Positions 25,001 to 28,000 of a DNA stretch of 64,000 bases are shown here, in pieces. The notes under the pieces were generated by a model. It saw nothing but the letters and a program-made list of their open reading frames with translations, was not told where the DNA came from and searched no databases. Every line of letters starts with the position of its first letter. Position 1 is the stretch's first letter. The stretch comes from Hormiphora californensis (Eukaryota; Animalia; Ctenophora). The stretch covers positions 3,472,001 to 3,536,000 of the forward strand of contig CM035360.1 in assembly GCA_020137815.1 (NCBI GenBank). Reading direction: 5' to 3'. The position numbers and the translations under genes are program-made.

Positions 25001-28000
25001 AGGTGAAGGTCGTAGAAGGAATATCCTTGGTCGCCTCCTCAGCTATACACCTGGTTGGGTCACTGAAGACTCCCACATATTGGGACTGAAGAATGTTGGA
25101 TTTCTCAAGGGGGTCATCAGTTACAGTACCATCCGCTCTCAAGAGAGGTGCTACATTGGACTTGGTTTTCCGGTGCTTGTTTACAAAGGACCAGAAGAAC
25201 CGGGGATTAGACTTGATAGTTCTGATTGCTTTCCTCTCCTTGCCTTCCAGGAGTCCAGTAAGATGTGATTTGATCTTAGCAGCCGTGTTTTCCACCTTCC
25301 GCTCGAGTTTCTCAATGTAGGATTGGCGTGAGAGATTTTGCTTTGCTAGTTTTATCCTCTGGTTAAGCTTTTTCTGTCTCCTTTTCAGCCTTCGTAAGTA
25401 AGGATCTTTCTTTTTAGAGGTACTGAAGACCTTCCGTTTACTATGTTTTTCGAAAACCTTCAAGACAGTTTCTATGAGACAATTTACGTAGGCATACCCG
25501 TCGTCATCTGGATCGCAGGATGAGAGAAGATTATCCCAGTCAATGTGGCTTAGCTCCTCATTGGCAGCATCAAAGTCCGCATTGTGATAGTCCAAGGCCT
25601 TGAAGCTCATTCCAGGCCGTACCCGGTCGTAAGCATTAGACTGATTGAGTCCTATTCCGAGAATACATGACACCAACGCATGATCAGACATCTGAGTTGC
25701 TGAGACATCCGTGTCAAGCACATAATCGATCCTATTAGTGAGAACAATGTCCAGCAGATTTCGGCCTCTAGTAGGTTCCGTTACCACTTGGGAAAGAAAG
25801 TTTCTCTCAGCAAAGTCAACCAAGGCATTGCCTTGATCCGCTGAAAGAGTAGACCAGTTTACTTGGGGCATATTGAAATCGCCAAGTATGAACACATCTG
25901 GTGGGCTATCTCCACAGGAGTGACGTTTTATAAACTCCTCCAAAGTCTCCAGAACATGGTGAGCAGGCGCTGTGGGGGCTCTGTACACTGATGCTATGAT
26001 GGAGTTTGATTTAGGAACATGAACTGCTACTAGACTGTTACAGTCGTCTGAGTAGGTTATTTGGTCGGACGGGGATATTGAGCAGTGAAGGTATAAAGCA
26101 CATCCACCCCCAACCCTACCTTCCCGATCGCTGCGGATGATAGAATATCCAGGAATGTTAACCTGGGCATCTGTGAATTCCGCCCGCCACCACGTTTCCG
26201 TGATGGCTGCAGCCATGACAGGGACACCTGAGTTACATATGGTGTCCCTCAAGTTCTCCAGTTTGTACCTTGCCTCACTGTTTGCCGACGGATTAAGACT
26301 GCGGGCATTGAGTAGCAACAGTTTAGACAGTCTACTGGGAACTATGGACCTATCTGGAGTTAGTACCTCCCCCTCTGCTGATGAGGGCTGAAGGTGTAAC
26401 CTGTTCCTGCCGGCAGTTGAGCCGGTTGGGAATGTTGGGAGTAGAACTGGTCTGGTTCTGGCTCTGGACGGTTCCTCATCTCCGTTCTCACTATCCCGGC
26501 TATTGTGTCCCTCAGCCGGTCGAGGACTGCCTCTAAAAAAGCAGGATCTGGTCCAGGCCTACGATTCTGAGACTGAGGCTGGGACCATTGTACTCCACTC
26601 GACACCCTCGCCCTATTGGATTCATTAGACCAAGCTCCTGATTCCGGTGCTTGGCTTGGACCTTGAGCTGATGGGATTCTGTCACGGCGGTTCCTCTCGT
26701 TGCCAGTCCCTTCTACAGGCCTAATCCTCCGGGTGTCCTTCAGGTGCTGTTTGGTACAGCTCTGTTTGTAACACGCATGCCGTAACTCGGAATTCTTGCA
26801 TAGTGGAGGGTGGAAAAGGATACATTCAGTGTTCTGGCATCCAACGCTCCTCATAGATCCATAGTTACAAAACTTTTTGCACAGTGTAGGGTGAGATTTG
26901 GGACAAGATCTGCCACTAACTAGCTTCGTCCCATCTCTCCCGTGTCTGCACCTCCTTTGCAAATAAAACCTACACACTTCGTTTCCTGGAACACCCCTCT
27001 CTCCCTGTTCCGCTGGGTCCGGTAGGTCCTCTCGTTCCTCTGCAGTTCTACTGATGTGCCTTCCCAGGATCTGCTCTCGGTTTGAACTACGTCTGGTCGA
27101 GTTATGACTAGGATCTGGACCACCGTCAGGTAGATGGCTAGTAAACCTTTCCAGAGTTTGTTTACCGAGGCAAGGGGAGCACACCCAAATTCGGCTTTTG
27201 ATAGCAGTGCTGCTGGCCTCTTCTCGTATCTTTGCACAGTTGTGCAGACCGCCACCACAGATGAAGCACCGAGCAGGGGGATTTTCATTTCTCTTCACGG
27301 AATACTTTTCGGTACACTCGCTGCATGTTTGGGGACCAAATCCCTCTATCCGCATGATGATCCAGTCAGCCAGGGTTGTTACTGAATGGTATTTCTGCAC
27401 TCCAGACGCCACACATCTAACCTCTTGGCCAAGGAAGATAGCAGTTGCCTCCAGATTACTAGCTGGGATAGCCTCCAGTTTGCTGAGGTTTTCCTCATAG
27501 TCCAGAGAAGGGTCATAAACTTCAATAACCTCCTTAACCGGTGTTCTGGCATCCTCTTTCAGCTCAGAGAGTACAGCAGCAAAGACGGCTGGATCTGTGT
27601 CATTAGCATGGTCCATTGCCATACTAGACACTACAGTGGAATATTTGAAAACGCACGGGCGCGCGCCTCAAATTAATTTGTTTAAAGTAGTGTTGAAAAG
27701 TTTGAAACTAATTGGCGATAACGTCATAAATCACATAATTATGGCTAATTAGTGAACCGGGGGTGGTAGAGACCTGTGGGATGGTACTTTGGACTTTTTA
27801 TAGAGTCCCTAATCATATCAGCAAGTCAAATTTAAAATTCCAGACCCAACTTCCCACAACCGACCCTACTATGTCACTCTTGTTCCCCCTGTCTACCGAA
27901 AGTGAGTTGTAGTCCGAATTTGTGAGTTTAGAGGGCGGACAAAAAGTCGAATTTCGACATTTTTAGCGGACAGAAACTCACCTTGGCCCCCACAACTCGA

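Follow-up and report, generated by a model that had tools for sequence, protein, structure and literature searches.

Introduction

The gag-pol slip site of human immunodeficiency virus 1 (HIV-1) is U UUU UUA, and mouse mammary tumor virus (MMTV) uses A AAA AAC. Here we describe a heptamer of this type in a long interspersed nuclear element (LINE) of the ctenophore Hormiphora californensis. The element lies in a 64,000-nucleotide (nt) stretch of the genome (assembly GCA_020137815.1, contig CM035360.1, positions 3,472,001 to 3,536,000, forward strand), hereafter the window, to which all positions refer. It is an intact, full-length LINE of the apurinic/apyrimidinic endonuclease and reverse transcriptase (APE-RT) type, occupying 27709-23212 on the minus strand, and its heptamer lies in the overlap between its two open reading frames (ORFs). 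From the sequence, we propose that -1 frameshifting at U UUU UUA probably yields an ORF1-endonuclease-RT fusion protein of ~1425 residues.

There is no settled account of how ORF2 of a LINE is translated. Reviews, in the text available, give reinitiation for L1 and SART1 (PMC2881922, PMC5972666, PMC5009743) and a -1 shift for the Dictyostelium TRE elements alone, with the site unspecified; a figure legend states that ORF2 of TRE5-A and TRE3-A requires a -1 frameshift (PMC5911963), and the accessible part of PMC5006619 adds nothing further on TRE5-A. The frameshifting review PMC5009743 lists HeT-A, TART and L1 in its available text and describes a heptamer plus H-type pseudoknot for PNMA3/Ma3. 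For Paramecium LINEs, +1 shifting, reinitiation or readthrough has been suggested (PMC5405496), and frameshift terms have no match in the accessible text of PMC13343379. In openly accessible titles, abstract openings and keyword passages, no paper was found that describes a slip site or a pseudoknot where ORF1 and ORF2 of a LINE overlap, nor was any found for Mnemiopsis; repeat-library notes on single elements may already mention such an overlap.

Results

An In-Phase Heptamer in the ORF1-ORF2 Overlap

The features that define the junction are the following.

26360..27622, minus strand: ORF1, 420 aa, with N-terminal helices, a PHD-like Cys/His finger, CCCH-like fingers, a disordered linker and a predicted C-terminal helix
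23346..26558, minus strand: ORF2 frame, -1 relative to ORF1, 1070 open codons in an open-reading-frame scan
26559..26561, minus strand: last -1-frame stop (TAG) before ORF2
26534..26540, minus strand: slippery heptamer U UUU UUA, ORF1 codons A361-F362-L363 (GCT TTT TTA)
26528..26533, minus strand: spacer GAGGCA, 6 nt
26298..26315, minus strand: LLNARS, motif I of the endonuclease, preceding the first AUG
26214..26216, minus strand: first AUG in the ORF2 frame, which falls within the endonuclease

The original prediction, made from the sequence of this stretch, had placed ORF2 in the -1 frame from 26558 with an overlap of about 200 nt and no ATG before 26216, which is past LLNARS, and these coordinates are all right: the -1 frame is open from 26558 to 23346, the ORF1 stop is at 26362-26360, and the overlap measures 199 nt. 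The predicted in-phase T TTT TTA at 26540-26534 was likewise borne out. The -1 frame has 29 stops, the last of them 18 nt before this heptamer, which is the sole in-phase XXXYYYZ among the 420 codons of ORF1. In 20000 synonymous recodings that kept the amino acids, the chance of the heptamer was 0.0175, that of a -1 frame open from the slip site to the end of ORF1 (59 codons) was 0.014, and the joint chance of both was 0.00025. The site thus combines two features expected of -1 frameshifting, an in-phase X XXY YYZ heptamer and a -1 ORF that is open from the site and has no AUG of its own. An AUG near the ORF1 stop, as in reinitiation of the SART1/L1 type, is absent, the first in-frame AUG lying 144 nt past that stop and past motif I. 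We rejected a start of ORF2 at this first AUG (26216): because LLNARS precedes it, such a start would remove the motif I Asn, and in Zorro3 mutation of this Asn is reported to cut retrotransposition below 5% (PMC1965478).

Relatives in DNA

Metagenomes provided 110 candidate stretches, which reduced to two loci, L001, which spans the junction, and L002, which does not reach it; viral contigs and prokaryote genomes yielded no junction DNA. The ORF1 of L001 is 34% identical to that of the window, and the locus starts with the same spliced leader as the window element. Its in-phase U UUU UUC lies 12 nt past its last -1 stop, its -1 frame is open for 55 codons to the end of ORF1 (chance 0.006), no Met precedes its LLNGRS, and the joint chance is 0.0014. 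The slip site is thus conserved in the one relative (1/1) whose DNA spans the junction. L001 also holds an in-phase A7 run at about 1100-1106, upstream of the overlap, where its -1 frame is closed; this run is probably incidental.

A second LINE, cut by the window edge, occupies 1-3733 on the minus strand. Its RT is about 30% identical to that of the first LINE, and its ORF1 gives no tblastn match and a weak CCHC knuckle hit. It too starts with the leader. Its ORFs overlap in -1 by 118 nt, motif I is preceded by no Met, and a single in-phase heptamer lies in the overlap.

2376..2382, minus strand: heptamer A AAA AAC of the second LINE, its sole in-phase one, inside the 118-nt -1 overlap

A C-terminal ORF2 fragment of a third LINE, related to the second (63% over 27 aa), is found at 5183-5866 on the plus strand.

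A Codon-Level Signature in ORF1 Proteins

A profile of nine ORF1s matched 2597 representatives (50%-identity clusters) at E ≤ 0.001, and the best 150 of these 2597 were examined. Thirteen have no C-terminal tail, 119 carry F-L (116) or F-F (3) before a helix-like stretch, and 18 do not. Because the helix-stretch rule itself selects for F-L, the fair count is that of alignment A4, which contains 137 ORF1s (the window, 8 close relatives and 128 of 147 new rows). It omits 19 rows that are fragments, tail-less, frame-switched (P0136) or over-long (P0192), and also P0006 and P0010; neither A4 nor alignment A3 holds a stretch conserved enough to scan.

F362 is present in 129/137 rows of A4. The preceding column, 361, is variable (S 40, D 32, H 21, A 17, P 13, N 6 and others; entropy 2.68 bits), and K, E, Q, M or W occurs there in one of the 137 rows, as a one-column misalignment, compared with 22-45 in the five columns that precede it. 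Among the 139 variable polar columns, one more has ≤4% of these residues, and it is Gly-dominated. By parsimony on a tree of 135 rows, column 361 changes 65 times, once into K/E/Q/M/W, and columns 357-360 make such changes 22-36 times. These five residues are those with no codon ending in U or C in the standard code, and their exclusion is as expected if the codon at 361 must end in U (or C). The residue after F362 (n = 129) is L in 119 rows, F in 4, C in 3, and W, I and R in one each, so that replacements mostly have U-starting codons; helix positions 366, 367 and 370, unlike 363, trade L, I, V and M freely. K-N, which can encode A AAA AAC, stands ≤6 residues upstream in 4 of the 8 rows without F, versus 2 of the 129 with F. 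As judged from the proteins, the column-361 pattern is a nucleotide-level constraint read through protein, which fits either NNU UUU UUA or a pyrimidine tract. Helix N-capping was largely rejected as the cause of the exclusion: the helix starts at 360 in the structure model, so that 361 is N2, and N-cap columns 10, 28, 41 and 53 hold 16-38 K/E/Q/M/W.

Several individual rows deserve mention. Branches with F-C or F-W (P0099, P0126, P0207, P0202) could carry a five-U run without a canonical heptamer. In P0192, P0227, P0229 and P0233 the ORF1 is very long (up to 1514 aa) and contains acidic repeats as well as PHD-like modules in duplicate; S-F-L followed by the helix remains the ending of P0192 and P0229. 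In the P0192 cluster, the long proteins are ORF1s that have been extended and carry no RT. P0033 and P0040, both called as ORF2, have about 80 residues in front of motif I, near the linker length of the window LINE. Two of the ten relatives looked up are Mnemiopsis leidyi gene models.

The Predicted Pseudoknot

26496..26527, minus strand: predicted H-type pseudoknot, stem 1 26527-26523 / 26511-26507, stem 2 26519-26513 / 26502-26496

The original prediction had placed an H-type pseudoknot behind the heptamer. Its 6-nt spacer and four stem arms are present as written (26527-26522, 26519-26514, 26513-26507 and 26501-26496), and the best-scoring form found here differs slightly, with a stem 1 of 5 bp without a bulge and a stem 2 of 7 bp. 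The H-type scan used Turner stacking energies with one bulge allowed and a small loop penalty, and is not a validated pseudoknot model; on this scale the site scores -24.7, a value reached at 1 of 350 sampled positions of the LINE. Synonymous shuffles reached it in 0/400 cases with tighter loop limits and in 9/3000 with wider ones, a p value uncorrected for the site having been picked beforehand because it looked good. The predicted structure stands within the 5-9 nt downstream at which a stable structure is expected. In nested folding stem 2 alone forms, with an unremarkable z of -0.1 to -1.4. Rfam returned just two chance miRNA hits, far below cut-off, and no pairing of the 3' untranslated region with the post-slip region stands out (-10.8 to -27.3; mean -23.6, sd 5.1, 321 windows).

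Contigs assembled from host DNA runs allowed copies to be compared. Two diverged contigs, one in each of runs X1 and X5, align over 26461-26560 only, with 7/18 and 9/19 of their differences listed, letters ≤30 nt from the ends (the heptamer included) being hidden. Both show changes at 26504, 26506, 26513, 26516, 26524, 26527 and 26528, and one also at 26507 and 26531. A closer variant copy has a single listed change, 26506, in loop 3, and no indel is listed in the U run in the host contigs.

Opposing Evidence and Alternative Explanations

A number of observations weigh against frameshifting at the heptamer, or against the pseudoknot as its stimulator. The diverged contigs of X1 and X5 break stem 1 (26527, 26524 and 26513, in X5 also 26507), in both a change at 26516 strikes the centre of stem 2 and none is listed at its partner position, 26499, and a hand check found that three pairs of the originally predicted stem 1 are broken by these changes as well. 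Behind the site of L001 stands a 5-bp hairpin at a 4-nt spacer (z -0.2 and -0.75), no better than shuffles, and its best knot is reached by 188/1500 shuffles. Conservation of the stimulator with covariation was thus found neither in the diverged contigs (0 of 2) nor in L001. For the second LINE the joint chance is only 0.085 and no downstream structure is seen (z 0.7 and 0.0), and the heptamer is known at the DNA level from two family members alone. Among the proteins, 3 of the 7 rows that genuinely have no F also show no K-N within 6 residues, 3 of the 4 K-N rows are possibly not independent (two fall in one clade), and the rows with F-C (3), F-W, F-I and F-R cannot hold a canonical heptamer. 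One N-cap column, 80, has 0/93 K/E/Q/M/W, though 69 of its residues are Asn. P0136 (Mnemiopsis leidyi model KAL5268486.1) passes from P-F-L straight into -1-frame-like text, which would speak for slipping at the site but may reflect a simple indel in the run or an artefact of the gene model, and a weak search among 7986 long candidates found no relative with ORF1 and ORF2 fused in frame. Finally, proteins cannot separate U-ending from C-ending codons, and therefore the family pattern fits a pyrimidine tract equally well.

Because diverged copies break the stems uncompensated and L001 has no better-than-chance knot, the knot is not family-wide. The predicted pseudoknot is striking in this copy, where it exceeds chance, and it is not conserved, failing the conservation test that had been set for it in the diverged copies, in L001 and in the second LINE. 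The original prediction had called for conservation of both heptamer and stems: the heptamer layout recurs in L001 and in the protein signature, and the stems do not recur and show no covariation. Given slipping, we lean slightly towards the modeled pseudoknot being a subfamily-level stimulator. It is possible, if rather doubtful, that slipping is real and the pseudoknot incidental, a sub-case of the frameshifting proposal in which slipping at the heptamer would be infrequent and need no aid, or none beyond a simple hairpin or a nascent-peptide pause. This would suit the broken stems, the lack of significant structure in L001 and the second LINE, and the coincidence of the arms with the conserved ORF1 residues D-R-L and I-A-G; such coincidence is countered by the shuffles, which keep the same residues and match the site score in only 9/3000 cases, and by the position of the one change listed in closer copies, in loop 3.

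The strongest rival to frameshifting is splicing, which we consider unlikely. Together with the next G the heptamer forms an acceptor-shaped UUUUUUAG, which could be a 3' splice acceptor, either with a donor in ORF1 cis-spliced to 26532, connecting ORF1 with the -1 frame, or with the leader added there, giving a subgenomic ORF2 RNA. The U run plus AG is present in the window, and G follows F-L in 86/119 rows (background 26%), where it completes an acceptor-like UAG and also fits a Glu at the helix start; AG is possible in the next codon in 13 more rows and impossible there in 20/119. The bar on purine-ending codons fits a pyrimidine tract, but L001 reads UUC GAG and the A AAA AAC of the second LINE is no acceptor. 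The host is described as trans-splicing (PMC8527503); the leader, however, precedes ORF1 in all three elements with a 5' end, and a trans-spliced product would still have no AUG before motif I. Cis-splicing would also account for the -1 frame opening at the site. Spliced RNA should nevertheless be copied back into DNA, so that a joint is expected there, and none is listed across 25900-27800 in 4/4 runs (contigs only, 25-50% of each run; RNA runs have no cover at the site). Splicing also has no need of a pseudoknot at 6 nt, a ribosome distance.

Termination-reinitiation at a non-AUG codon is quite unlikely. Ribosomes would stop at 26360 and restart 30-42 nt downstream, giving free ORF2p, with F-L kept for the protein helix.

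26316..26330, minus strand: near-cognate CTG 26330, CTG 26321 and TTG 26318 in the ORF2 frame, candidate non-AUG starts under reinitiation

Such codons stand just before motif I in both the window and L001 (TTG), but in the endonuclease the candidate Leu codons encode ordinary strand residues. For L1 and SART1, reinitiation is the accepted model (PMC2881922, PMC5972666), and L1 reportedly tolerates replacement of the ORF2 AUG by any sense codon (as described in PMC1965478). What it leaves unexplained is why the -1 frame is open for 59 (window) and 55 (L001) codons inside ORF1 (chance 0.014 and 0.006), as well as the codon-class exclusion at 361, the U-starting replacements at 363 and the pseudoknot. 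A spliced-leader subgenomic RNA and a non-AUG start were among the outcomes that the original prediction had named as fatal to it, and both come out weakened. Transcriptional slippage on the U6 run, which would add a base in some transcripts and fuse the frames in RNA, is very improbable: there is a homopolymer at the site and P0136 switches frame there, but six T are short for transcriptional realignment, which usually needs about 8-9 bases, extra-base RNAs would return as fused genomic ORFs, of which none was found (weak search) and no indel is listed at the run, and a fixed codon phase would not be needed.

Proposed Mechanism

We therefore return to -1 frameshifting as the preferred explanation. 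The layout, the frames, the leader and the heptamer are directly visible in the DNA, and the steps between them would run as follows. A leader-capped, trans-spliced RNA would be translated cap-dependently from the ORF1 AUG, and most ribosomes would finish the 420-aa ORF1p. At the heptamer a ribosome would pause with UUU and UUA in its P and A sites, in this subfamily probably owing to the H-type pseudoknot 6 nt downstream, and a minority would slip by -1 into ORF2. The fusion would comprise 363 residues from ORF1 and 1062 from the -1 frame. Since the frame would change where the predicted helix starts, the product would keep the zinc fingers, lose the C-terminal helix and gain a 73-residue linker; and as no protease or integrase is seen in the LINE, it would stay uncut. 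Other subfamilies would keep the slip site and must use other or weaker stimulators. The fusion that had originally been predicted from the slip site gains from the L001 layout, the family codon signature and the A AAA AAC of the second LINE, and loses with the unconserved pseudoknot.

It is tempting to extend this proposal to the comb-jelly LINE family as a whole, whose ORF1 is matched by 2597 clusters. The family would make its RT as a Gag-Pol-like -1 fusion at a heptamer kept through deep divergence, put A AAA AAC in place of U UUU UUA on some branches, and evolve new stimulators within each subfamily, in this one a pseudoknot of retroviral type. It would cycle via leader-capped RNA, and LINE 5' ends would thus explain part of the hundreds of dispersed leader copies. 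We regard this extended proposal as evenly poised between true and false.

The Element and Its Proteins

27667..27709, minus strand: spliced leader, placed exactly at the LINE's 5' end, 43 nt identical to the Hormiphora californensis leader in PMC8527503
23215..23234, minus strand: 3' tail, two copies of the 10-nt unit TTTATGAATG
23212..23214, minus strand: short target-site duplication TAG, whose other copy, 27710-27708, overlaps the first two leader bases

The leader sits in front of ORF1 in 3/3 elements examined that have a 5' end, 42 nt of it recurring at window 3733-3692 and at L001 352-393; host leader in DNA thus opens three LINEs of at least two different families. The H. californensis genome is reported to hold 718 leader copies (PMC8527503), some of which may be LINE 5' ends. 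In run X1 the summed contig depth over the leader far exceeds that over the rest of the LINE.

The element has the marks of an APE-type non-LTR (LTR, long terminal repeat) element: LTRs are absent, the 3' end is a simple repeat, the target duplication is short, and ORF2 encodes an AP endonuclease followed by an RT. The label 'CR1-like' fits this anatomy, and rests on anatomy rather than on RT phylogeny. The LINE landed in one arm of a long, ~98% identical inverted repeat (22435-23214 / 27708-27871) that is foldback-like or like a miniature inverted-repeat transposable element (MITE), and the uninterrupted target site is visible in the inverted arm at about 22571-22640. Contigs from one of the DNA runs match the LINE over 856 nt of its 5' part and differ from it once; this near-identity and the unbroken frames suggest a young family.

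In ORF2 the slip site is followed by a 73-codon low-complexity linker, the endonuclease and the RT. Exo_endo_phos, Exo_endo_phos_2 and RVT_1 score above the Pfam cut-off, and the best solved relative is human L1 ORF2p (E 2e-13). For ORF1, Pfam gives only a weak FYVE_2 hit (E 0.016), and a fold search with the ORF1 model returned no match at E ≤ 0.001. The predicted C-terminal helix spans residues 360-383 in the structure model. PHD appears below the Pfam cut-off in the best hits of 3/11 relatives, plus one weaker, and the Cys/His pattern is conserved in ORF1s.

Discussion

We interpret the heptamer as a real, well-placed -1 slip site with good comparative support, as far as sequence can tell, in an element class for which there is hardly any documented frameshifting. 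With a defined heptamer and a candidate pseudoknot, LINE frameshifting becomes directly testable in a standard reporter. If the proposal is true, the fusion ties the ORF1 zinc fingers to the RT and could explain cis preference and the ORF1:ORF2 ratio by a route other than that of L1, and an annotation that starts ORF2 of these families at the first Met is wrong. Where only proteins are at hand, such sites can be detected by the amino-acid test, which looks for exclusion of residues whose codons end in purines only.

L1 and SART1 resemble the window LINE in their bicistronic RNA and in an ORF2 product that is produced in small amounts and depends on translation of ORF1. They are described as having an inter-ORF spacer or a stop-start junction, an AUG at ORF2 and a free ORF2p, whereas the window LINE has a 199-nt overlap, no AUG and a predicted fusion. 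CR1/L2-lineage LINEs with a PHD-bearing ORF1 (PMC4120745) share the APE and RT of ORF2, the PHD-like finger and a short 3' tandem repeat; the window ORF1 adds CCCH-like fingers and the C-terminal helix, and 'CCCH', 'frameshift' and 'ctenophor' occur 0 times in the available text of that paper. Hydra CR1 transcripts that are trans-spliced to a spliced leader (bioRxiv 10.1101/2024.03.13.584568) are likewise full-length LINE RNAs with a host leader, which is reported there on RNA reads and is here fixed in DNA at the 5' end of 3/3 elements.

As regards frameshifting, TRE5-A and TRE3-A are the nearest described LINEs, being APE-RT elements said to need a -1 shift for ORF2. Their legend gives no slip site, structure or assay, and their host and ORF1 are different, in contrast to the defined heptamer with a family-wide codon signature described here. 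With retroviral and LTR-derived -1 signals the window LINE shares the in-phase XXXYYYZ, the 6-nt spacer, the predicted H-type pseudoknot and an RNA-binding ORF fused to a -1 RT ORF. It differs from them in that its host is a non-LTR APE-RT LINE, its stimulator is unconserved across subfamilies and the signal is known here from sequence. By its predicted layout, the signal would work like that of retroviral gag-pol.

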